Origin: Acidobacteriota bacterium
GTDB taxonomy: Bacteria; Acidobacteriota; UBA6911; JACQSX01
NCBI GenBank assembly: GCA_036507075.1
Contig: DASXQR010000098.1
Span: 1-27,677 of the forward strand
Direction: 5' to 3'
Length of the DNA stretch: 27,677 nt
Numbering within the stretch: position 1 is the stretch's first letter; every line of letters starts with the position of its first letter. Both the position numbers and the translations under genes were made by a program. The notes below the pieces were generated by a model. The model did not search any database, was not told where the DNA came from, and saw only the letters and a list, made by a program, of their open reading frames with translations. Positions 4,304-20,934 of the stretch are shown one piece after another.

Positions 4304-5158
4304 ATGCGAGTTCCAACCAGTAGGCGCGCGATTCTGATCCAATTTCTGTACAGCTTAGGTTGCGCTTCGGCCGGGTACCAGGAAACACCGAGGTGGACGA
4401 TAGGAAAAACCAAACTGCGCGAGCCTGCTGGGAGTCTGATGGCTGAAGTAGAGCAACTCTATGGCGAACCTGTCAGAATCGAGACAGTTAACAATCTAAA
4501 GACAACTCGCAAAATATATGCGGAGGCAACAGTTACACCGAATGGAAACCCCGTTGTCAGTGTCGATCCGATTGTTCAGTCAGACCAAACCGAGTTGATC
4601 CATGAGTTGCTTCATTTGAAACTCTGGAAATTTGGTTTTCCAGACAAAGTGTTGTTCTTACCGATCGACGGAAATCGCATTCTCTTGAGTGCAGTTGACG
4701 TTTGGACGGTGAGCGTTCATAGCGTGATCTATCGCGAGATGCGAAAGATCGGTTTGGATCCTACTTCTCGGGACAGAGAAGAATTAGATGAGCTGATTAA
4801 AGGAGGTGTTGATCCGGCTGAATGGTTGCCTTCACCAGTTCGCTCGGCCGCAGCAAAACGAGCGATTCGTGCGTTCGTTTACATGAGAATCTACGTCGAA
4901 TGTGACGATCAATCCTCACTATCAAAGCTTGATAAATGGTTTGAGCGTCGAGGCTGGAATGAGGAGATTCGTGTCGGTAGAACCGCGGGCAAGGTGATGA
5001 TGCAAATGGATAAAGGACCAAACGGCCGGCTTGATGCGACGATAAAGGCATTAAACATCCTTCATGATGGTCGGACTTTATTCTTCGTTGAATCTTTTGT
5101 CCCCGATATCAGGGGTAAATTTGTGAATCGGAAACCGAAGATCGTACCAAGGACGTGA
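4304..5158 (+). CDS. Putative zincin-like metallopeptidase, possibly exported
   Basis: HExxH motif (LIHELLH) with a downstream His (VHSVIY); basic/hydrophobic N-terminus (SRRAILIQFLYSLGCASA). Confidence 0.6.
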   Translation: MRVPTSRRAILIQFLYSLGCASAGYQETPRWTIGKTKLREPAGSLMAEVEQLYGEPVRIETVNNLKTTRKIYAEATVTPNGNPVVSVDPIVQSDQTELIHELLHLKLWKFGFPDKVLFLPIDGNRILLSAVDVWTVSVHSVIYREMRKIGLDPTSRDREELDELIKGGVDPAEWLPSPVRSAAAKRAIRAFVYMRIYVECDDQSSLSKLDKWFERRGWNEEIRVGRTAGKVMMQMDKGPNGRLDATIKALNILHDGRTLFFVESFVPDIRGKFVNRKPKIVPRT

Positions 5159-5467: not shown

Positions 5468-6286
5468 TTGCTTGATACCCTAAAGGAGTGTTGCACTCAG
5501 GTGAACGCGTTGATTGAGGAAATGGAATCGCCCGTCCCGGACAACCGCTGGCAAGCTGATTCTTTGCGCTTCACGCTCTTTCCGACAATCGGCCTCGCGC
5601 CACCACAATCCTCTTGGTGGGCGAGAATAGTTGGAGACGAGCCAGAGACAAGCGTTTCACAGCCTCGACAGGGAACATTGATTGAATCTGGCGCCTATGC
5701 CGGCCAACAGTTAACTCTCGCCATACAAGCCAATCGGTTGGATTGGACAGTTACGCCATCCGAAGAGTCGCAACAATCCGAAGGGCCACCTTCCATAGGT
5801 CCCTTTGCGGAACGGTTGGAAGGTTTTGTGCGCCTTATCCACACCTGGTTTAGTTCCCCTAGCTGTCCAAAAGCCAAAAGGCTCGCATTTGGGGCAGGAC
5901 TTATACAGAATGTGCCAGATAGGGCGACAGGTTACAGACGACTCCAGCCGTTCCTTAAAGCTGTTAGTCTCGATCCTGATCGATCATCAGATTTTGTTTA
6001 CCAAATCAACCGACCAAGAAACTCCAAACGCATGGCTTCAGGTCTCAAGCTTAATAGGCTGTCCAAGTGGATGGTCGCGATTTGGTCGAGAGCGTTAGTG
6101 CTTGAGCCAGCGCTAACGTCTAATCCAATAATCAGGACCCAAAAGCATTTTTCCCAGAGGCTCGAACTCGATATCAGTACCGATCAAGAGTTTCAAGCGG
6201 AGTTTGCACCTTCAGATGCTGCCCAAATCTTTAGTGAATTGGTCGATCTGGGTATCGAGATTTCGATAAACGGAGACATTCCGTGA
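5468..6286 (+). CDS. TIGR04255-like hypothetical protein (gene 1 of a three-gene operon)
   Basis: RLDW, RLAFGA, YQINRPR and LELDIST pattern recalls TIGR04255-like proteins; the true start may be 5501 or 5522; stop overlaps the next GTG. Confidence 0.6.
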   Translation: MLDTLKECCTQVNALIEEMESPVPDNRWQADSLRFTLFPTIGLAPPQSSWWARIVGDEPETSVSQPRQGTLIESGAYAGQQLTLAIQANRLDWTVTPSEESQQSEGPPSIGPFAERLEGFVRLIHTWFSSPSCPKAKRLAFGAGLIQNVPDRATGYRRLQPFLKAVSLDPDRSSDFVYQINRPRNSKRMASGLKLNRLSKWMVAIWSRALVLEPALTSNPIIRTQKHFSQRLELDISTDQEFQAEFAPSDAAQIFSELVDLGIEISINGDIP

Positions 6287-7110
6287 ACGAGCGCATTTTG
6301 ACATTGACTACATTGAGGAGTCAGGAGGCTCAATTCGGGTGCTTTGCTGAGGACGAGGCTGGGACAAATCTTTCTGTAGCTATTGAGCGCTGGATCCTCG
6401 GGAATGCTGTCGATCCTTTGAGGGGCGTTGCGCTGGTTTACCCCGGGCTCGTCCTAATAGAAGCGCCGGATACGGTGGATGTTTATCCCGCAGCCACGGT
6501 TCGAACATCTGAGTACAGATCCGAGCATGCGTATTTGTTCGATTTTTGGGTTCACGATCTCAACTTTGCAACTAGCCGGAGCTCAGAGCAGGGGTGGGTA
6601 ATTACTTCAGAGGAATCCAGCAAACCCAAGCACCTCCAGCCGACAATCACGATGCGCGTGGAACCAATACCGGCCACTCAGACCGATTTTTACATCGTAC
6701 ATCAGCAGGCCCAGAATTTGTTTCGCAACTCCTCTGATGACATTTCTGAAGACGGTATCGAAACCGACTTCTCGAAAAATCTTACTAAATTGATAACCAC
6801 TTATGGGGATTTGGCAATTAAATCCATTAGCCGAATCATTCTAGGAAGCAAATGTGGCCAGGTGCTGGCTGGAGAAGCCTTGCGGTGGATCGGTCGAATC
6901 AAGGATCCGGCTACACACACACAGAGAAGGTGGCTTCTTGAGAAGAGCCTCAACTCACCGTCAGCCTATGTGAGAGACGGCGCCAGCCTCGGCCTTGTCG
7001 CTCTAAATGACGCCGATGCCATCCCCGCCTTACGGGTCGCAATTGAAATTGAAAACCTGCCTCTAATTAAAAAGGCTTTGCAACAGGCACTTCAAGAACT
7101 GGAGCATTAA
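6283..7110 (+). CDS. Protein with C-terminal HEAT-like repeats (gene 2)
   Basis: LEKSLNSPSAYVRDGASLGLVALNDADAIPALRVAIEIE is HEAT-like; GTGA overlap with gene 1. Confidence 0.7.
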   Translation: MNERILTLTTLRSQEAQFGCFAEDEAGTNLSVAIERWILGNAVDPLRGVALVYPGLVLIEAPDTVDVYPAATVRTSEYRSEHAYLFDFWVHDLNFATSRSSEQGWVITSEESSKPKHLQPTITMRVEPIPATQTDFYIVHQQAQNLFRNSSDDISEDGIETDFSKNLTKLITTYGDLAIKSISRIILGSKCGQVLAGEALRWIGRIKDPATHTQRRWLLEKSLNSPSAYVRDGASLGLVALNDADAIPALRVAIEIENLPLIKKALQQALQELEH

Positions 7111-7115
7111 GGCCA

Positions 7116-7622
7116 GTGTCCTTTGTTCTGAGAATCATCAAACTACCGAGATGGAGTGACATGGCTCCAGACTGGGTTGCTCCGGGAGATATCGCTGCAG
7201 ACCCACTTTCTGATCTATGTACGAATGGTCATCAACTTTCGTTTTACGAAATAGATGACAGCATGTCCAACTTGGATCTCGTAGTGGCCGCACATGCTGC
7301 GACCAGGGACACATTCAGTAATTTTGACTATGTCCTGCTGGAACGCCAGATCGTGGAGAAGGACTTCGTGATTCAACCCTCTCCGGGCACAACTCCAAGT
7401 GACACTGCGAACTCGTTCCATCTGAACTTTTCGAGGATGACCGGAAAGGGTGTGGCGAAATTGGCATGGTTGATGAAGGAGCATGGCAGAATAGAAAGAA
7501 TCCAGGAGCCTTCTGTACGAAGTCTTGTTCTGGTGGCGGTGAAAGCAGGGAATGTGATCCTAGATAGAATGAAGCCGGGATTTGCAGAAAAGGTCAGGAC
7601 TTTGTTAGGTGATGCGAGTTAG
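7116..7622 (+). CDS. Hypothetical protein, tentative ADP-ribosyltransferase/RES-like fold (gene 3)
   Basis: N-terminal strand Arg (VLRII), DLCTNGHQLSFY and GTTP...ANSFH; starts 5 bp after gene 2. The fold call is an inference. Confidence 0.5.
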   Translation: MSFVLRIIKLPRWSDMAPDWVAPGDIAADPLSDLCTNGHQLSFYEIDDSMSNLDLVVAAHAATRDTFSNFDYVLLERQIVEKDFVIQPSPGTTPSDTANSFHLNFSRMTGKGVAKLAWLMKEHGRIERIQEPSVRSLVLVAVKAGNVILDRMKPGFAEKVRTLLGDAS

Positions 7623-8151: not shown

Positions 8152-8616
8152 TTAAGTAGAGAACGATTCGTCCCTTAACCGATATTCTCGTAGTATCGCC
8201 GTGTAAACCTCGTCGAACTTTCTCATTACAAAATCATTCACTCTGCGCGGAATTCCATTTTCAGACCGAAAGTTGTACAGAGATTGGTGGACGGAATATC
8301 CTGGCACCCGGCGATGATCGCCAAACCGATCCAAGAGGAAGGCTGGCCAGTTCCAGTCATTGGCGGCGAAATAAGGCAGAATCTCTTCGAGTTCATCGAT
8401 AGAGAGGACAGTAAGGGGCCAAACTCTCGGGTTCGCCTCTCGCAGCTCACTTTGGAAAAGCCGGTTGAGATATTCGTTTATCCCGAATGATTCCAGGATT
8501 GGTTCATAGGCGATTAGGACCGGATAAATATTCGATCCGCGACTTACTGGCAACCTTCCGTTCAGTGCTGAGAATACCGCTCGAGACGCAGTCCTGATAA
8601 GCTCATACTGATCCAT
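8152..8616 (-). pseudogene. C-terminal fragment of an unknown protein fused in frame to the first 12 codons of istA
   Basis: [12 protein letters not shown] (istA start) continues without a stop into AVFSALNG...IYPVLIAYE...PLTVLSIDELE. Confidence 0.7.
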
Positions 8617-8741
8617 CCCAATCATCCTTCTCCTCTGTCTCTGCTGACTTCTTCGCAAAAGCCAGACAGTTGTGACAGAGGTCGATTGGGGTGGGTCACT
8701 TTTCGGTATCACTGCCGCCTCAGGTGGGTCATTTTTAGATT
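8580..8741 (-). mobile_element. Isolated IS21-family left end (inverted copy of 10128-10289)
   Basis: ~162 bp near-identical reverse complement of the IS21 left end, lacking the terminal ~12 bp. Confidence 0.88.
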
Positions 8742-8750
8742 GGGTTCGTC

Positions 8751-9329
8751 ATGCGAAGAGATGTGATGGTGAAGGGCTGTAGGGCGGTAGATCGTCTCCC
8801 TTCTGGAATACGTGCGCTTGTCAAGCACTATATCATCCACTTTCGCCCTCGTGCCCATGAAGAACTCAATCAATTCCGGAGAGAATCCGAGTTGGTTGAG
8901 GTCATTAACGCGGCGGCTTTGGCGCGACAGAAAAACGGAAAACGCTTCAGGCACCAATGTCGCATCCCGTCGCGGGCGCTTCACAAATGCGCCACGCGCC
9001 TGCTGAGGATCCAACCCCAGATAGCCTCGTGCCACTCGTTTGCGGAGCTGTTCACAATTGTTGAAAGCGCTATTGGAGATATTGAAGGAATCGGAGAGCT
9101 AACCATCTATGACACCGCGTTACGAATTGGGGCTCACCTGCGCCTCAAGCCTCGTGAGGTCTATCTCCACGCGGGAACGCGGGAAGGTGCAAGGTGCCTC
9201 GACTTGCCTGTGCACAGACGTTCAATTCGAGTCAGCGAAATGCCCGTGGCAGTTCGACGTTTGCAACCGCACGAAATTGAGGATTGGCTCTGCATTTACC
9301 GCGATCGCTTTTTGAATCTCCGCACGTGA
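8751..9329 (+). CDS. Helix-hairpin-helix DNA glycosylase-like protein
   Basis: HhH motif IEGIGELTIYD, then VYLHAGTREGA and a C-terminal EIEDWLCIY. Confidence 0.65.
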   Translation: MRRDVMVKGCRAVDRLPSGIRALVKHYIIHFRPRAHEELNQFRRESELVEVINAAALARQKNGKRFRHQCRIPSRALHKCATRLLRIQPQIASCHSFAELFTIVESAIGDIEGIGELTIYDTALRIGAHLRLKPREVYLHAGTREGARCLDLPVHRRSIRVSEMPVAVRRLQPHEIEDWLCIYRDRFLNLRT

Positions 9330-10115: not shown

Positions 10116-11063
<948 letters not shown>

Positions 11064-13123: not shown

Positions 13124-15589
13124 TTGGAACCTAGTTTGGGAGTAATGGAAAGAGAGATCCAGTTTCACTCGAGACCGATACGCACAGCCTTTCTGGTCGA
13201 CCCAGATTCGACAGCTGTTGAATCGGAACTCGATGCGGCCGTCGATTTTAGCCTACGCCAGTGGGGAGGGTTATACAACCCCATCATTCCAGTAGTAAGG
13301 GGCAGCATTCCAGATCCCTTCTTCCGCCTCATGAGAATGGCAGATCCCGATCTTGTGTACAGCTATACAGATCTGTCCCCTGGAATAGTTGACAGAATTG
13401 ATCGTCTCGTTGGACCGCTTCACTTGGTCCGCCATACCGAAAATGGTGGAAGCACCGACTTTGAAAAGAAGCGCATTCTACAAGGGGCACATTTTTGTCC
13501 ATTCGATATCCAGTACTGCATTCCGAAACAGGTTATCCCTAGTAGGCCCCGCAGGATACCGATCATCCAGAACGACTGCGCCCAAACCCTAATCAGAATC
13601 CTAAAGCGCAACTTTGGAGTCTGTCCGGAGCATTATCCCGGACAACTTCCTCCCTTTGTGGAGGTCTTCGAAATCGATCGTACGGCGAATCTGGCATCCG
13701 TAATGGAAGCTGTGAGATCTCCGGAAATCCTTTTTCCGATCACGTTATCATCTGTCGACTTTGAACCTCCAGAAACGAACCAATCTTATAAGTTCGCAGA
13801 GTTCACTGTAATCGTTGGGGATTCCTGCTGGAACACCATTTGGGGCTGGGATCGAATTAATCTGTTGCCCGCATGGAGGAAGAGCCACCTTAACCAGTTG
13901 ATTTTACCAAGAGCGATCTTTGATAGTCCGGAGCATATCAACGTATTAGCTGCATTCTTGGAAAGCATTGCACAACGAAATTTTGGGAGCCTGCCCCGCC
14001 TTGGTTTTGAATCTTACGATCTAACCAATGCAGAACTTCAGGAATGTATTGACCGTTTGCCGAAAGGAGTTGGCCATACTTTCAGGTCGATGGAACCACA
14101 AGCGTTAACCAAGGGAGACTTACCCGAATTCACGGTTAGAGACTGGGGGTTGTTTCGAGAACCCCCTTACACCAAGCGGGACTGGTTCCGAGACGTGGCT
14201 CGACTTCGAGTTTCGCCTCCACCTATGCTTTCGCTGTCTGCTAGCCCCGTGGAGTGGATGGTGGAAACAAGAATTGAGCAACGCCCGGGCAGGTATTCCA
14301 ACAGGAAGGACTGGTTGCAGGTGCCTAAGAGCATGGCTCTCGGCCAATTGTTTTCGACAGGGGGTATCGCGAGAATCAACCGTAACGGTCTCCCCACCTA
14401 TCTTGTATCCAATGGACCTGCAGTACTTGAAATTCATCCACCAAATGATCGAATGATCTTCCAGGTAATTTATTCTGGATCTAGCCATCCGCCATTCACA
14501 GATGACGTCCGTGCCGACAGGCCCGCTCCATTTCGCTATGTTGAACTATCGGATAAAGGCCGGCACATAGATGGTGTACTACAATTATTTCCAACGTTGT
14601 GGGAGGCCGGCGACATGGTCTCCAGTCCGTTCTGGAGATCAACTTTGGAGTGGCTCTGTCGGCGTAGGGCCTCCCTGGATGCGACTGTCCTCGATCAGAT
14701 AGAGAGGCGCCTTGCGAAGCAAGTTACATTGCCGATCGGCAACAGGAGTGAGTATCTGAAAGTTCTTAGCCGAATTGTCCTCAACACAGCGAAACACCTT
14801 CCCATACCTAAGCCCGAAGTCCAACTGGATCAACTAGCCAAACGGCTAGTTCATGAGCGAAAGATTTGTCCGGAACTCAAAGTGGAAGCTCCCGTGGGTA
14901 GTCGAATCGGGCGTGAAGAAATGAGACGGCTCATGGAAGTACTGGTAAAAATAATGGAAGCAAAAGCTCCGGCGGAAGCTCAGGACGATCTTAAGGAAGC
15001 ACTTGCAACTTATGTCAGCAACTCCATTTTTATTCAGGGAATAAACCCTTCATGTCCGAAATGTGGACTGAAACTGTGGTTTCCAGTTAATGAACTCGGT
15101 AGGATCCTCACGTGCCGAGGATGTCTATCAGAATTCAATCTACCAATTGAACCTACGTGGTCCTACCGCCTTAATGAGTTGATGGTGGCCGCTGTCGTCC
15201 ACGGAGGTTTGCCAGTGCTCTGGACACTGACCACACTGAGTCAACAGGCTCAGAAAAGTTTTTTGTTTTTTCCGAGCGTGAACTTATATAACAAAGAAGT
15301 CGCCGCAGAAGCAGAGGTCGACATTACCTATATCATCGACGGCAAGCTCGGCATCGCGGAGGTAAAGCTGTCAGCGGATGATTTCAAACCAGCGGATCTG
15401 GGAAGGATGGAAAGGGTCGCTCGAGAGATTGAGCCTGATCTAGTGTTATTCTCCGTTTTCAGCCCACGTGGCAAGGCTCGATTGGCGGAGCTTGCGAAGA
15501 CGTTTGAATCCCAAGTAAGCGATCTTAACGTCGCAATTCAACGCCTCCAAGCGCCAGAGGAGGCGTTCACTCCACGATTCTGGCTCTGA
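13124..15589 (+). CDS. Large protein with C-terminal Zn ribbon and PD-(D/E)XK-like nuclease domain
   Basis: CPKC...CRGC and EVDITYIIDGKLGIAEVK; N-terminal RPIRTAFLV...WGGLYNPIIP; possible start ATG 13145. Confidence 0.75.
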   Translation: MEPSLGVMEREIQFHSRPIRTAFLVDPDSTAVESELDAAVDFSLRQWGGLYNPIIPVVRGSIPDPFFRLMRMADPDLVYSYTDLSPGIVDRIDRLVGPLHLVRHTENGGSTDFEKKRILQGAHFCPFDIQYCIPKQVIPSRPRRIPIIQNDCAQTLIRILKRNFGVCPEHYPGQLPPFVEVFEIDRTANLASVMEAVRSPEILFPITLSSVDFEPPETNQSYKFAEFTVIVGDSCWNTIWGWDRINLLPAWRKSHLNQLILPRAIFDSPEHINVLAAFLESIAQRNFGSLPRLGFESYDLTNAELQECIDRLPKGVGHTFRSMEPQALTKGDLPEFTVRDWGLFREPPYTKRDWFRDVARLRVSPPPMLSLSASPVEWMVETRIEQRPGRYSNRKDWLQVPKSMALGQLFSTGGIARINRNGLPTYLVSNGPAVLEIHPPNDRMIFQVIYSGSSHPPFTDDVRADRPAPFRYVELSDKGRHIDGVLQLFPTLWEAGDMVSSPFWRSTLEWLCRRRASLDATVLDQIERRLAKQVTLPIGNRSEYLKVLSRIVLNTAKHLPIPKPEVQLDQLAKRLVHERKICPELKVEAPVGSRIGREEMRRLMEVLVKIMEAKAPAEAQDDLKEALATYVSNSIFIQGINPSCPKCGLKLWFPVNELGRILTCRGCLSEFNLPIEPTWSYRLNELMVAAVVHGGLPVLWTLTTLSQQAQKSFLFFPSVNLYNKEVAAEAEVDITYIIDGKLGIAEVKLSADDFKPADLGRMERVAREIEPDLVLFSVFSPRGKARLAELAKTFESQVSDLNVAIQRLQAPEEAFTPRFWL

Positions 15590-16402: not shown

Positions 16403-16918
16403 TCAAGACTCCAGAAATGCAATATCTGCTTGTTCTTCTCTTCGTCGTTTCTCGTCTCTCGCCGCAGCGCTCCGTTTGATAAACAGCAGGTCCTCTTTTG
16501 AAACGACCGAGATCGGAATGCCGTTCTCGATGACTGATTCACGCTTCGAATGTGCAGTTTCGAAGTCCAGGCCGTCAACTGAGGTAAGGATATCCAGAGC
16601 AGGACCATGGGGGGCGAGCGATATCCTTTTACGCGGGAGCATCAACTCATCAGCTGTAAAGTTCGGAGTGTATCCCAACACTGTGCGGATGGTTTCAAAC
16701 AGTTTTCGGACATTCTCTGTGGAGTTATTTGCCAAAATATCCACGTCTTCCGCATAACGGCGACTACCATAAAATCTCATCGCATAGCCTCCAATGAGCA
16801 AGTAGTCAACTGCATTACGGCTAAGCACCTCCATGGCGACTAACTCGGCTTCAGGAATTCCAAGCATCTGCTCGTGGACCCTAGTTTCGTAAGTACTCTC
16901 TGTGTTGGTCTGGCTCAC
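16403..16918 (-). CDS. Nucleotidyltransferase-family protein (gene cassette)
   Basis: YLLIGGYAMRFYG...EDVDIL (GG...DxD), LDIL, EDLLFIKR...R...D; the GTG start coincides with the attC R' box, so the true start may be downstream. Confidence 0.8.
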   Translation of the reverse strand: MSQTNTESTYETRVHEQMLGIPEAELVAMEVLSRNAVDYLLIGGYAMRFYGSRRYAEDVDILANNSTENVRKLFETIRTVLGYTPNFTADELMLPRKRISLAPHGPALDILTSVDGLDFETAHSKRESVIENGIPISVVSKEDLLFIKRSAAARDEKRRREEQADIAFLES

Positions 16919-17181: not shown

Positions 17182-18009
17182 TCACCTAACGACACGCATC
17201 ACATCGGCGGTTGGTTGCCGGCTGCCGCATGCTCGCGTTAGGCGCCCGGCGGCTTCCGCCTGCTCGGGTTCCCGTCCTTCCCGAAGGTGTCGACCCTGCT
17301 CTGATGCATAGCCCCAAGCCTTTTCCACGACCTGATCCAGCGGTGCCGGAATCAGGCCCGGATGTCGCGACAGCAACTGACCAAGTGTAGGCCTCGCATC
17401 GCCACAGACATCGCGCGCAATACACTCCAAAGCCACCATCGCGTGTTGGATAGCGCCGGTGAGGTCAGGCACAGGTCGCCGTGATAAGTCTTGCAATGCC
17501 TGGTGAAGTTCGTTCCTTGCTGTCATACTGCCAGCATCTTCCAACCGTTCTATCGCTCTGTTGACAGGTTCCTGAAATGACTCCGGCCCTCGAGCCTGTA
17601 CCAGACCACCGACGAGCTGCCACCCTATGCCAGCCCCACGGAAGTACAGGTTGATCTCGTTTGCAAAGTAGTCCGGGCGCGGAGGTCGCTGGAAATCGGC
17701 CGACGAAGTGTTGCGTAGGAAATGATCCACTGCCTCGACAATGTCGTACACCTCATGCCACGCGCATTCACGGAGGCGCCGTCGCACTTCTTCGTCGACA
17801 TTCGGAAAGTCGGACCAGTTCCAAGACTCTTCCTCGACCCGAAGAACGCGGGAGACAATGCGCCTCAGCTGTGTCGGTTGGAGGCCGGCCTCGTACGCAA
17901 TATCGACGACAGCGATGCGGAGTCCAGTGGGCGCATCTTGCCTGACCGTTATCTCGGCGTCTTCCGGTTCGAAACCGAGTCTTCTGGAGAAGCGGTCACT
18001 AGAACTCAT
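17182..18009 (-). CDS. AbiJ N-terminal-domain-like protein, probably C-terminally deleted (gene cassette)
   Basis: RFSRRLG...ITVRQDAP...WHEVYDIVE...EINLYF...GIGWQL and TGAIQHAMVALE...GRH recall AbiJ-NTD4 proteins; the last ~20 codons read through the attC. Confidence 0.7.
   Translation of the reverse strand: MSSSDRFSRRLGFEPEDAEITVRQDAPTGLRIAVVDIAYEAGLQPTQLRRIVSRVLRVEEESWNWSDFPNVDEEVRRRLRECAWHEVYDIVEAVDHFLRNTSSADFQRPPRPDYFANEINLYFRGAGIGWQLVGGLVQARGPESFQEPVNRAIERLEDAGSMTARNELHQALQDLSRRPVPDLTGAIQHAMVALECIARDVCGDARPTLGQLLSRHPGLIPAPLDQVVEKAWGYASEQGRHLREGREPEQAEAAGRLTRACGSRQPTADVMRVVR
17184..17243 (-). other. attC-like site (60 bp)
   Basis: Minus strand GCCTAAC-GCGAGCATGC...GTGATGCGTGTC-GTTAGGT. 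Confidence 0.7.
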
Positions 18010-18353: not shown

Positions 18354-18401
18354 CTCATAACCCAAAGGTCGCGGCTTCAAATCCCGCCCCCGCTACCAAC
18401 C
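18354..18401 (+). repeat. attR core: second copy of the tRNA-fMet 3' half
   Basis: 47/48 identical to 875-922, with one G>C change in the T-stem. Confidence 0.92.
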
Positions 18402-18943
18402 TGAAATCGGCCACCCACCCCACCACCGAGACACCAAGTCAGCATGTGACAGCGTCGGCGCCAACGTGGCAGCTAAAGAATTTTGTCAGGAAAGCAAAGT
18501 TCCGCCGATTAGCTGCGTCGCTTCTGTTTCTTAAATGCGGCGGGCAGATCTAAGATGTAGGTTGGCGGTGCTTCACGCCGGGCATTCAGCCCGGGCGTCG
18601 CAAAATTTCGAAGCACCGCAACATTGCCTTGAGCTGATGCCTGCAATGAAGCAATTAACTTGTGAACAATGCCTGGTTTGATGCCATTTACGGCCTGGCA
18701 AGCGGCCTCGGCCTGCCCGAACTGCTTTTCAAAAGGCTGGTTTAATAGTAGACGGCTGGCTCCAGGCGCAGCATTGTTGGAAGGACTTTGTCGACAGAAT
18801 TCGCCCGCTTGTGCCTGTGCCCGAACCCTCCGGGTGATCGAAAGGCATTCTCTCGATGGATAAGCGATTCGGATTGAACGAGCTTGCCCAGTCCCGGCAT
18901 AATGTGTGCAGAAACTTAGGTTTTTCCTAAGGTATTGCACACA

Positions 18944-19220
18944 ATGGGACACGCAGGTAAAAGAACCCCGGATCACGCCGCTCTTTATCATCTTGCCGAG
19001 CAGCAGGCCGAATACTTCACCGCCCGTCACGTGGCCAAGGCGGGTTTCTCCTGGGAGCGCCTGACCGAATACTCGAAAAATGGGCGCTTCCAAAGAGTCG
19101 CTCACGGAATTTATCGACTGGCCCAGGTTTCCTTCCTCACGTTTCGAGGATCTCTTCGTGGCCTGGCTGAAGTGTGGCCCGCGGTCTGCCATCTCACATG
19201 AAACCGCTCTTGCCCTCTCT
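18944..19220 (+). pseudogene. AbiEi-like type IV TA antitoxin, frameshifted and truncated
   Basis: LAEQQAEYFTARHV...FQRVAHGIYRL, then a frameshift into FPSSRFEDLFVAWL...AISHETALAL, then loss of similarity; no AbiEii follows. Confidence 0.8.
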
Positions 19221-19393
19221 TCCAGGGTCCAGGGCGGGATCGCTAAAAACCTGAACCACGAAGCCGGCTATCTCGTTCTCAATCCGGTGAGGTGAGTCAA
19301 CCGTCTCGGCGCAATCGATACGACGGAATTCAGGAGGTAGGCGGTAGACAGATCAAGAACCTTTCAGAGCAGACGAAGGAAAATTCATGCGGC

Positions 19394-19906
19394 TCAAACT
19401 GTCAGGTCGGAGGGATTATAGACGACGTAATCGGAGGCACGTTCAAGGTCTTTATCCGCGCTGGCGATTCCCTTAATTCCAAGTCTCAGAGCTGTCGCCA
19501 ATAATACTGCATCATTCGTCAAGAATCCGCACCGGCGACGAATGGAGAGGCTCTCCATAAGATCTGCTTGTTTCAGATCTTCGACATGAAGACGTAATGC
19601 GAAAATGCGTCGCAGTCGTTCTTCATAGCGAACGAGAGACTGAATCCGCTCGGGCCGCTCCAGTAGAGATCGAACCGGATTTGAGCCCTTTGCCCAATCA
19701 TTCTCCTTAGCCTCGAGCATCATCAGCCGGTGCGTCACCTCTACTAGGGAAAGAATTGAAACATATCCCTGAATATTACCTGCCGCGCAGCGTTGCATGA
19801 ACCGGCCGCAGTCGTCCGAGCGCTGCGTGAGCCAGTAGACAAAAATATTCGCGTCGATCAAGATCCGGGCGCCTTCTTGGACCTCACGCAGATTTACTGT
19901 TCCCAC
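19394..19906 (-). CDS. vapC: PIN-domain toxin (VapC family)
   Basis: ILIDANIFVY, EVTHRLM, LTNDAVLLA and IASADKDL; likely GTG start at 19906 overlapping the antitoxin end. Confidence 0.9.
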   Translation of the reverse strand: MGTVNLREVQEGARILIDANIFVYWLTQRSDDCGRFMQRCAAGNIQGYVSILSLVEVTHRLMMLEAKENDWAKGSNPVRSLLERPERIQSLVRYEERLRRIFALRLHVEDLKQADLMESLSIRRRCGFLTNDAVLLATALRLGIKGIASADKDLERASDYVVYNPSDLTV

Positions 19907-20133
19907 ATATCCATTCGCAAGACAGCTTGCAGGTCTTCGTCTGAGACCCGGATTGGATTGCTGTTGAGCCATTGCCAGGCTTGAAGGGATTCCTGCTTGC
20001 TTGGGTTTAGCTGGAGATAAGCGACTACGGCGTCATGCAAGATCTCGGCAAGGGGGCGTTGCTCATCGGCAGCGCGCTTCTTGAGCTCCTTGAATAGCCG
20101 CTCTTCTAGAACTGTTCCGATTTTGCGTTTCAT
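19894..20133 (-). CDS. RHH-type antitoxin
   Basis: MKRKIGTVLEERLFKELKKRAADEQRPLAEILHDAV fits RHH; directly upstream of the PIN gene. Confidence 0.85.
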   Translation of the reverse strand: MKRKIGTVLEERLFKELKKRAADEQRPLAEILHDAVVAYLQLNPSKQESLQAWQWLNSNPIRVSDEDLQAVLRMDMWEQ

Positions 20134-20187
20134 CCTCTGTTCCCGCTTCGATTGTAGGTGAATTGAATTAGAGACGTCAAATGATTA

Positions 20188-20251
20188 TCTAGATATCTAG
20201 AAGTAATCTAGACATGACGCAGAAATGCTGCCAATGTGCTACAATGTGCAC
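20188..20251. promoter_or_regulatory. Divergent TA promoter/operator region
   Basis: Three TCTAGA palindromes (20188, 20196, 20207); extended -10 TGCTACAAT (20237-20245) 6 nt before ATG 20252. Confidence 0.55.
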
Positions 20252-20536
20252 ATGTCAAAAAAGCAGAGTGTGGGTGTCCGGGAGCTGCGGCAAAATCTGA
20301 GTGTATACCTCAGGCGTGTAAAGCGCGGTGAGCCTATTGAGGTCACGGAACGCGGCCGGGCAGTCGCCATACTCGCGCCCCTACCCGAACCTGCCACGGC
20401 CATGGACCGACTGGTTGCTTCGGGCCGGGCTTCGGCGCCGGCCGGCGACCTGCTCGATCTGGCCCCAATTCCCTCCAGAGGACTGTCGAGACGACTCAGG
20501 CGCGCCCTCGATGACATCCGCGCCGAACGTCTGTAA
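20252..20536 (+). CDS. Phd/YefM-family antitoxin
   Basis: VGVRELRQNLSVYLRRVKRGEPIEVTERGRAVAILAP. Confidence 0.92.
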   Translation: MSKKQSVGVRELRQNLSVYLRRVKRGEPIEVTERGRAVAILAPLPEPATAMDRLVASGRASAPAGDLLDLAPIPSRGLSRRLRRALDDIRAERL

Positions 20537-20934
20537 TGACGAAACTGATTTATCTCGATTCCTCCTCAATCATAAAGCTGGTCATCCGGGAAGCCGAGAG
20601 CACGGCGTTGATTGAGTTTTTGCGTCATCGTCTGCAGCGGACCTCAAGCGCCGTCGCCCGGGTCGAAGTGCTGCGAGCGCTTCGTCGTGCAGGAGCGACA
20701 CAGGCCGAGAACGATCACGCTGTGGAAGTTCTCCGGCGTCTGGCCCTGATACGAATCAATGATGCGATCCTCGAGTCTGCAGCCGAGCTTGAGCCGTTCG
20801 ACTTGAGATCACTGGACGCGTTACACCTTGCCAGCGCGCTGTCGCTTCAACCAGATCTTGAGGGCATCGTCACTTATGACAGACGTCTCGCGGCTGCCGC
20901 GCGACCACTGATGACCGTATGGACCCCGCAATGA
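20536..20934 (+). CDS. vapC: PIN-domain toxin (VapC family)
   Basis: IYLDSSSIIKL, RVEVLRA, LRSLDALHLASA and VTYDRRL; TAATG overlap with the antitoxin. Confidence 0.93.
   Translation: MTKLIYLDSSSIIKLVIREAESTALIEFLRHRLQRTSSAVARVEVLRALRRAGATQAENDHAVEVLRRLALIRINDAILESAAELEPFDLRSLDALHLASALSLQPDLEGIVTYDRRLAAAARPLMTVWTPQ

Follow-up and report, generated by a model that had tools for sequence, protein, structure and literature searches.

A mobile three-gene cassette with a constant first gene and a swapped downstream pair: a candidate chaperone-controlled toxin-antitoxin switch

What might three tightly coupled genes without a family assignment do on an integrative element of an Acidobacteriota genome? 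The operon in question lies at positions 5,468 to 7,622 of contig DASXQR010000098.1 (assembly GCA_036507075.1), whose 27,677 nucleotides make up the window analysed here. A first-pass annotation had read it as three intact, tightly coupled genes for a TIGR04255-like protein, a HEAT-repeat protein and a protein resembling ADP-ribosyltransferases (ARTs). The coupling is as described: all three open reading frames (ORFs) are intact on the + strand, gene 1 and gene 2 (6283-7110) share a GTGA overlap at 6283-6286, and a 5-bp gap (7111-7115) separates gene 2 from gene 3. None of the three matches NCBIfam or PADLOC, and the only Pfam match is a sub-threshold HEAT_2 hit in gene 2. With slightly better than even confidence, we read the operon as one copy of a conserved mobile cassette forming a three-part switch akin to toxin-antitoxin-chaperone (TAC) systems, in which gene 1 would hold an arm of gene 2 and a domain of gene 2 would block gene 3. 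Its parts are as follows.

5468-6286, + strand: gene 1, the constant 'helper', 272 aa, real start probably at 5501-5522; predicted chaperone or sensor
6283-6700, + strand: N-terminal arm of gene 2, about residues 1-135; weakly conserved, variable in length and rich in Ser, Thr and Pro across the family
6701-7110, + strand: C-terminal HEAT-like helical domain of gene 2, about residues 140-275; conserved, predicted antitoxin domain for gene 3
7116-7622, + strand: gene 3, predicted toxin, 168 aa, ART-superfamily fold; conserved R6, W13, D29, S42, T93 and H102

Gene 1 probably starts 11-18 codons after the TTG at 5468, because homologues run to about 255 aa and the database call, of 261 aa, begins at residue 12. 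For gene 3 we take the GTG start to be right, since the alignment with homologues begins at residue 1 and takes in the conserved Arg6; the database call, which begins at Met16, would drop R6. A scan for promoters and terminators gave a result at chance level, and no second copy of the cassette was found in its own genome.

From an alignment of gene 1 (102 rows), we collected loci from genomes (the best 80 of 105), metagenomes (the best 80 of 345) and viral contigs (2), counting those with at least 1.5 kb downstream of the gene-1 homologue; the 7 genome and 38 metagenome loci that fell short of this were set aside. At 77 of 115 loci (42/73 genome and 35/42 metagenome loci), gene 1 is followed by genes 2 and 3 in the same order, and at none does either occur alone; gene 2 is thus never without gene 3 where there is enough downstream room. 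This recurrence is far beyond chance coupling, and we rejected chance clustering of ORFs on these counts. The second gene overlaps gene 1 by 4 nt in 96 of the 114 loci that have a second gene, a count biased upward because non-cognate second genes were partly picked by that spacing. Carriers include Chloroflexota, Cyanobacteriota, Acidobacteriota, Nitrospirota, Planctomycetota and others, with a sporadic distribution: the gene-3 profile matches 5/401, 2/341 and 1/391 genomes in three phylum samples, the first two of which include the seed genome.

Starting instead from gene 3, we assembled 10 loci (6 genomes, 1 phage and 3 plasmids), one genome of which was already known from the gene-1 search. 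Two coupled genes stand upstream in 10/10, and the gene-2 profile matches 7/10 of the second genes at E≤0.004. The first genes belong to the clade of the window in two cases, to true TIGR04255 in one (136.6 bits) and to a third clade in seven. A standalone two-gene system beside an unrelated neighbour was rejected on the presence of a slot-1 gene in all 10 loci. Both directions of search thus bear out co-occurrence of the three genes in other genomes. DUF6941 genes directly adjoin the trio in two Chloroflexota loci (L052:4313-4870 and L067:7304-7705).

These relatives surfaced only through profiles or intermediate queries. As a single query, gene 3 of the window found no relatives in genome contigs or in a word-index database, and genes 1 and 3 as single queries found none among plasmids. 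The gene 1 family as found comprises 531 proteins and that of gene 3 comprises 1,199 clusters at 50% identity. Gene 1 is the best conserved of the trio, with a mean column identity of 40% vs 20% for full-length gene 2 and 32% for gene 3.

What stands behind gene 1 when its usual partners are absent? Of the 38 loci that lack both gene 2 and gene 3, 31 have another coupled pair in the same two slots. The third genes of these swapped pairs include Fic proteins (4 loci, 2 over the Pfam cut-off), PIN proteins (2, just under the cut-off), a HEPN cluster of 5 (one over the cut-off), a PemK/MazF protein (3 loci, the same protein) and, by Pfam, DUF7689. By eye, further groups look aspartyl-protease-like or like other ARTs; the latter label is by eye because profile A2 did not detect these other Arg-Ser-His (R-S-H) ART-looking slot-3 proteins (E≥1). 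On a quick gene-1 tree of 103 rows, with unlabelled loci and two viral rows left out, 20 partner changes are needed (minimum 7, shuffled mean 28.5), and partners are mixed within the starred clades. Gene 1 is the constant part, and the pair downstream of it is swapped, which goes beyond what the first-pass annotation proposed.

Two groups among the swapped partners are worth recording in their own right. One slot-3 family carries an aspartyl-protease-like DTG motif by eye, with no Pfam match (L035, L036, L043 and L143, e.g. in Desulfonema), and is possibly an undescribed protease toxin. The second genes of L026, L163, L170, L171, L184 and L185 share another antitoxin-like domain, paired with a different third gene that looks ART-like by eye; this domain weakly matches the C-terminal part of PADLOC PDC-M32A (best E 2e-6).

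The predicted toxin, gene 3, gave a confident model (pLDDT 96.8) that found no Foldseek match at E≤0.001. In an exhaustive structural search, about 45 of the 50 listed chains belong to the ART superfamily, judged from their titles. The top match is the RES toxin VPA0770 (Z 5.0, 103 residues aligned, root-mean-square deviation (rmsd) 3.7), followed by 9ld3 (4.6), CC0527 (4.6), Tse2 (4.3), DarT (4.2), MbcT (3.8) and ParT (3.4). From its title ('K63A/2',3',5'-P-A/ADPR'), we take 9ld3 to be a tRNA 2'-phosphotransferase. With every score short of the Z 8 that the tool sets as its bar, the evidence for the fold is the consistency of the list, with which the structure neighbours in the Atlas, FRG and DUF952, agree. 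Individually weak as the scores are, the modelled protein appears to have the split beta-sheet fold of ARTs. Profile searches against the sequences of solved structures gave nothing meaningful for gene 3 or for gene 1.

Across 148 aligned gene 3 sequences, Arg6 (91%), Ser42 (100%) and His102 (100%) are conserved, all on or at the start of predicted strands, and R6, W13, D29, S42 and H102 are retained in 7/7 distant homologues checked. An Arg on the first strand and a Ser on the second is the pattern of the Arg-Ser-Glu (R-S-E) clade of ARTs. The late invariant residue of gene 3 is a His, and no Glu is conserved at 90% in the alignment, which leaves gene 3 outside the definition of that clade. 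None of the 148 family sequences matches Pfam RES or DarT. Of the initial ART/RES-like description, the ART-superfamily fold with its conserved Arg, Ser and His holds up, and the RES-type residues and a Pfam RES match were not found.

Gene 2 is built of an unconserved arm and a conserved domain, in line with the poorly defined N-terminus and HEAT repeats ascribed to it at the outset. The HEAT_2 match is weak (residues 196-271, E 3.5e-5, below the curated cut-off), and PADLOC's generic HEAT-ARM model matches 14 of 62 gene-2 rows (best E 1e-4). Mean conservation is about 0.5 in the C-terminal domain vs 0.05-0.23 in the arm. The arm has a recurrent feature of its own: a [SNA]-S-T motif occurs in 53/70 cognate gene-2 arms vs 16.4 in shuffles, its position peaking 25-27 residues ahead of the FEDG motif of the domain. 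As the motif was discovered on the cognate arms, we turned to second genes that are unrelated to gene 2 but follow a gene 1 of the same clade (19 arms intended, 2 dropped on de-duplication) and found it in 8 of 17 arms, vs 3.3 expected (P=0.009); a cruder split using all 34 unrelated arms gave 11 vs 5.9. The motif may be specific to the gene-1 clade. Because an N-terminal arm is the one feature common to otherwise unrelated pairs, we infer that gene 1 acts on the arm. Gene 2 carries no DNA-binding Pfam domain, so autoregulation must lie elsewhere or be absent.

Which known systems does this arrangement resemble? The first-pass annotation could match the operon to no named system and likened it to TAC systems. 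Both points stand: no PADLOC 2.0 system was matched by the three genes or by the distant trios, the generic HEAT-ARM model aside, and the tripartite layout is analogous to TAC. TAC systems such as CmdTAC and HigBAC have a SecB-like tetrameric chaperone, a C-terminal, aromatic-anchored ChAD on the antitoxin, and the chaperone gene last (PMC11618068; bioRxiv 10.1101/2024.02.24.581848; PMC9519451). Like them, the cassette consists of three coupled genes and occurs on prophages; its predicted antitoxin bears a long extension of low conservation, and its third protein stays constant across several toxin families. With CmdTAC in particular it shares a predicted toxin of ART fold. It differs in that its helper is a TBP-like sheet (after TATA-binding protein) of about 255 aa, without a SecB match to profile hidden Markov models (HMMs) and encoded first, and in that the extension of its antitoxin is N-terminal with a Ser/Thr motif, the C-terminus being the conserved HEAT-like domain. 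The toxin differs too: filing under CmdTAC was rejected on the conserved residues of gene 3, which are R6, S42 and H102, not the H-Y-[EDQ] given for CmdT. The cassette thus fails the TAC tests of sequence, arm polarity and catalytic triad; that it would nonetheless work like TAC is suggested by analogy.

RES-Xre systems (ParST, MbcTA, VPA0770/0769) and DarTG share the ART-superfamily toxin fold and are among the best matches of gene 3, but they are two-gene systems with helix-turn-helix or macrodomain antitoxins. RES toxins replace the Ser and Glu of the R-S-E clade with Tyr and Asn (PMC9503650); gene 3, by contrast, retains the Ser and carries a His. With no Pfam RES match and no Y/N substitution, RES-Xre was rejected as a home for gene 3.

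Another parallel in layout is DS-42 (PRO1), an E. coli system validated in the DefensePredictor study as weakly protective, with a -log efficiency of plating of 1.1 and smaller plaques on Bas1 (PMC13092281). It too has three genes: the first, of 238 aa and no assigned function, runs 4 nt into the second, a 190-aa gene whose N-terminal part is Ser/Thr-rich by eye, and an enzyme effector comes last. The effector is a metallo-beta-lactamase (MBL) hydrolase rather than a 168-aa ART fold, and the second gene is not annotated as HEAT. No passage on the mechanism of DS-42 was found in the main text of PMC13092281.

No description of the trio or of its swapping pattern was found in the literature searched, with subscription papers and bioRxiv supplements as places that could hold one; the trio was not matched in the passages checked of PMC3710099, PMC13069673, PMC9503650, or bioRxiv 10.64898/2026.10.19.760177, 10.1101/2024.01.29.577857 and 10.1101/2025.01.08.631726. 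We consider the trio likely to be an undescribed toxin-antitoxin system under a new kind of helper protein.

How might such a system work? Gene 3 would be an NAD+-using ART-fold toxin, which gene 2 would block through its HEAT-like domain. Gene 1 would bind the variable, Ser/Thr-rich arm of gene 2 and so keep the antitoxin stable. When a phage infects, gene 1 would likely be titrated by a phage product or run short once the host is shut off; with its arm left uncovered, the antitoxin would be lost, and the freed toxin would stop the cell. The logic of this switch, in which gene 1 holds the arm and its release frees the toxin, is borrowed from HigBAC and CmdTAC, and toxicity, neutralisation, arm binding, the trigger and phage defence all enter the proposal by that analogy. 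On the same footing, the operon is probably an anti-virus defence system.

Several observations weigh against this proposal. The structural matches of gene 3 carry weight only as a consistent list, each falling under the bar, and its His stands where R-S-E ARTs have their catalytic Glu, an equivalence drawn from strand order and not from superposition. The arm of the window's own gene 2 lacks a canonical [SNA]-S-T and has a degenerate P-A-T at residues 130-132, near the usual place, and the arms of the gene-3-first loci are not enriched for the motif (2/8, P=0.39). By the rule used, 7 of the 38 non-cognate loci show no clear coupled pair. Defence or toxin-antitoxin-type Pfam domains fall within the two nearest ORFs on each side in 9/32 genome loci (our own count, with no baseline), and many chromosomal copies sit among housekeeping genes, with no strong tie to defence islands. 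That gene 1 is homologous to DS-42A, the opening gene of DS-42, is a judgement by eye only. Finally, the conserved charged residues and best fold matches of gene 1 suit an enzyme or a nucleic-acid binder equally well.

The confident model of gene 1 (pLDDT 92.8) is a curved beta-sheet with two TBP-like repeats in TBP-like element order; the two-repeat reading rests on secondary-structure order, and an internal repeat was not detected at the sequence level (E 0.87). The best structural matches, arginine kinase (Z 7.5), AdoMetDC (6.9), McsB (6.7) and TBP (6.4), are all of middling strength and point to no function. SecB is absent from the 50 top matches listed, the best of which are all at Z <8, and no match of SecB or CmdC type was found for gene 1 in Pfam, NCBIfam or PADLOC, nor any NCBIfam match in its 102-member alignment. 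Our best reading of gene 1 is a helper unlike SecB in sequence and size.

We think it unlikely that gene 1 instead binds nucleic acid through a TBP-like saddle, as a regulator of the operon or as a sensor of phage DNA or RNA that signals to the antitoxin rather than chaperoning its arm. The top Foldseek matches in the PDB are to TBP (E 5e-5) and many viral structural matches are TBP-like proteins or early transcription factors, but the TM-scores to TBP are only 0.2-0.3. The conserved polar residues of gene 1 (R34, R90, R138, N181, N196, R197, K200, E233 and D235) include several Arg, Lys and Asn that would suit such a surface, as would a regulatory role left vacant by the missing DNA-binding domain of gene 2; against this, the invariant acidic E233 and D235 alternate with basic residues along a strand, on the same face to judge from the alternation. 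Nor would a saddle of this kind account for the arm and shared motif of every partner antitoxin.

Improbable, too, is that gene 1 is an enzyme, akin to a kinase or ligase, whose covalent modification of the arm at its Ser/Thr motif acts as a switch and sets the stability of the antitoxin. The longest alignments of gene 1 are to the sheets of arginine kinase/McsB and glutamine synthetase (158-190 residues, Z 5.7-7.5), its alignment has 8 invariant and 26 near-invariant columns, many of them polar, and the motif itself is built of Ser and Thr. All of these matches, however, are at Z <8 with rmsd >4 A, no guanidino-kinase or glutamine-synthetase signature was seen by eye, hardly anything but a central Arg and a late Asp is common to the other slot-1 families, and the arm in the window is without the canonical motif.

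Could the wiring be as we propose and the cassette serve chiefly to stabilise its element, as an addiction or stress module, with no role against phage? Distant trios occur in temperate phages of Acinetobacter, between the lysin and an integrase or insertion sequence (IS), and on small plasmids (4-8 kb) of Klebsiella, Enterobacter and Acinetobacter, where they are nearly the sole cargo. A mobile-element gene is among the four nearest ORFs in 3/32 chromosomal loci (no baseline), and DNA of the Klebsiella cassette had no match in complete E. coli genomes. Carriage on an integrative element in the window, the plasmid cargo and the shortage of close defence neighbours around most chromosomal copies would suit such a module. 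Yet the cassette fills the accessory slot of temperate phages, and its effectors have been swapped repeatedly, as is typical of immune systems. DS-42, with its same layout, lowers plating of phage Bas1, and DefensePredictor scores TIGR04255 as predicted defence (PMC13092281). We give this alternative a low probability.

Of 13 phage records with the first gene, 7 were compared with an intact cassette: one is intact, five have a shortened gene 3 and one ends within gene 1. In the Acinetobacter phage records L207-L210 and L212, genes 1 and 2 are near-identical to the intact cassette and identity stops about 156 nt into gene 3, leaving a frame of 61 aa in the four phage records read. Loss of the toxin first fits toxin-antitoxin logic, but the five phages are close kin and the loss may be a single event. 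Compact intact copies exist on a 4.4-kb Klebsiella plasmid and in Acinetobacter phages; NZ_OW968434.1 holds an intact plasmid cassette and KT588074.1 an intact phage cassette.

It is very unlikely that gene 3 is no host toxin at all, its His-for-Glu ART fold being a binding or repair module or acting on phage targets only, and gene 2 a scaffold rather than an antitoxin: the non-canonical triad and close-scoring folds that are not known to be toxins (the presumed tRNA 2'-phosphotransferase, labelled from its title, CC0527, DUF952 and FRG) would suit this, but elsewhere the slot holds the Fic, PIN, HEPN and MazF toxin families, gene 3 was not seen without two upstream genes in 10 loci, and it is the gene truncated in phage copies.

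If the three-part switch is the better description, how far does it extend? Gene 1 had been called TIGR04255-like, a label that survives in part. Gene 1 and its 101 homologues have no match to the TIGR04255 HMM, falling below its 30-bit curated cut-off, and family membership was rejected; the genome of the window has no match to that HMM either. Proteins of that family do, however, occupy the same slot: true TIGR04255 (NCBIfam sporadTIGR04255) heads similar trios at L165, L170, L171, L172, L184 and L185, and one such protein (L205) heads a HEAT and ART pair homologous to genes 2 and 3. They are similar in length to gene 1. Direct profile comparison of gene 1 with TIGR04255 is not significant (E 0.09-0.29), and the third slot-1 clade aligns weakly and in register to the gene 1 clade and to TIGR04255 (E 0.003 and 0.03; reversed controls 0.24 and 0.73). 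Gene 1 and TIGR04255 are possibly remote kin. TIGR04255 proteins are scored as predicted defence genes in the DefensePredictor supplements (PMC13092281), and the family has no main-text mention in the literature searched.

A bolder and more tentative extension, which we consider possible but somewhat doubtful, is that gene 1, TIGR04255 and the first gene of DS-42 form one superfamily of SecB-independent chaperone-sensors that would grip grafted N-terminal Ser/Thr arms and so make almost any toxin-antitoxin pair phage-triggered. This would be a second, independently evolved TAC architecture, with gene 3 as the founding member of a new class of Arg-Ser-His ART toxins. The three-part switch, if it holds, would supply a function for the widespread, unannotated gene 1 family and probably also for TIGR04255, a testable mechanism for the unexplained DS-42, and a case in which control of toxin release by a chaperone arose on a second scaffold, with the arm at the other end of the antitoxin. 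Gene 3 itself suggests a clade of ARTs whose site, Arg-Ser-His, is unusual.

The operon lies inside a 17.5-kb element between 48-nt repeats, with an integrase alongside.

875-922, + strand: left 48-nt att-like direct repeat, 3' part of a tRNA-Met gene; bounds the 17.5-kb integrative element
1004-2197, - strand: tyrosine integrase of the carrying element, Phage_integrase, E 4e-21; 397-aa full-length ORF
18354-18401, + strand: right 48-nt att-like direct repeat, 98% identical to the left repeat

The repeats consist of the 3' part of tRNA-Met only, with no whole tRNA within the window; the matching tRNA gene is on another contig (C7), and the element may have inserted at an already duplicated att site. 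The earlier picture of a decaying island fits the IS21-like remnants and does not fit the full-length integrase, the repeats or the other long ORFs.

Several other features of the region are of interest. Directly upstream of the operon, 4304-5158 (+) encodes a 284-aa ORF with a HELLH (HExxH) motif and no family match, which was not seen to recur as a partner of the trio. Inverted copies of an IS21-like end at 8580-8741 and 10128-10289 (97% over 91 nt) bracket a family-less 192-aa ORF (8751-9329) and are followed by istA/istB remnants at 10171-10788. An intact 821-aa ORF on the same element (13124-15589, +) belongs to no Pfam, NCBIfam or PADLOC family, has a possible CxxC pair at about residues 643-671 and is a candidate single-gene defence protein. 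Adjoining the right repeat, an AbiJ_NTD4 protein (17182-18009, -) matches the PADLOC candidate PDC-S32 (E 3.5e-20), with a C-terminus that looks altered. Also at the right end of the element (16403-16918 (-) and 18935-20934) are a nucleotidyltransferase-like ORF with weak DUF2204/AbiEii similarity, an AbiEi remnant and two PIN-domain toxin-antitoxin pairs.

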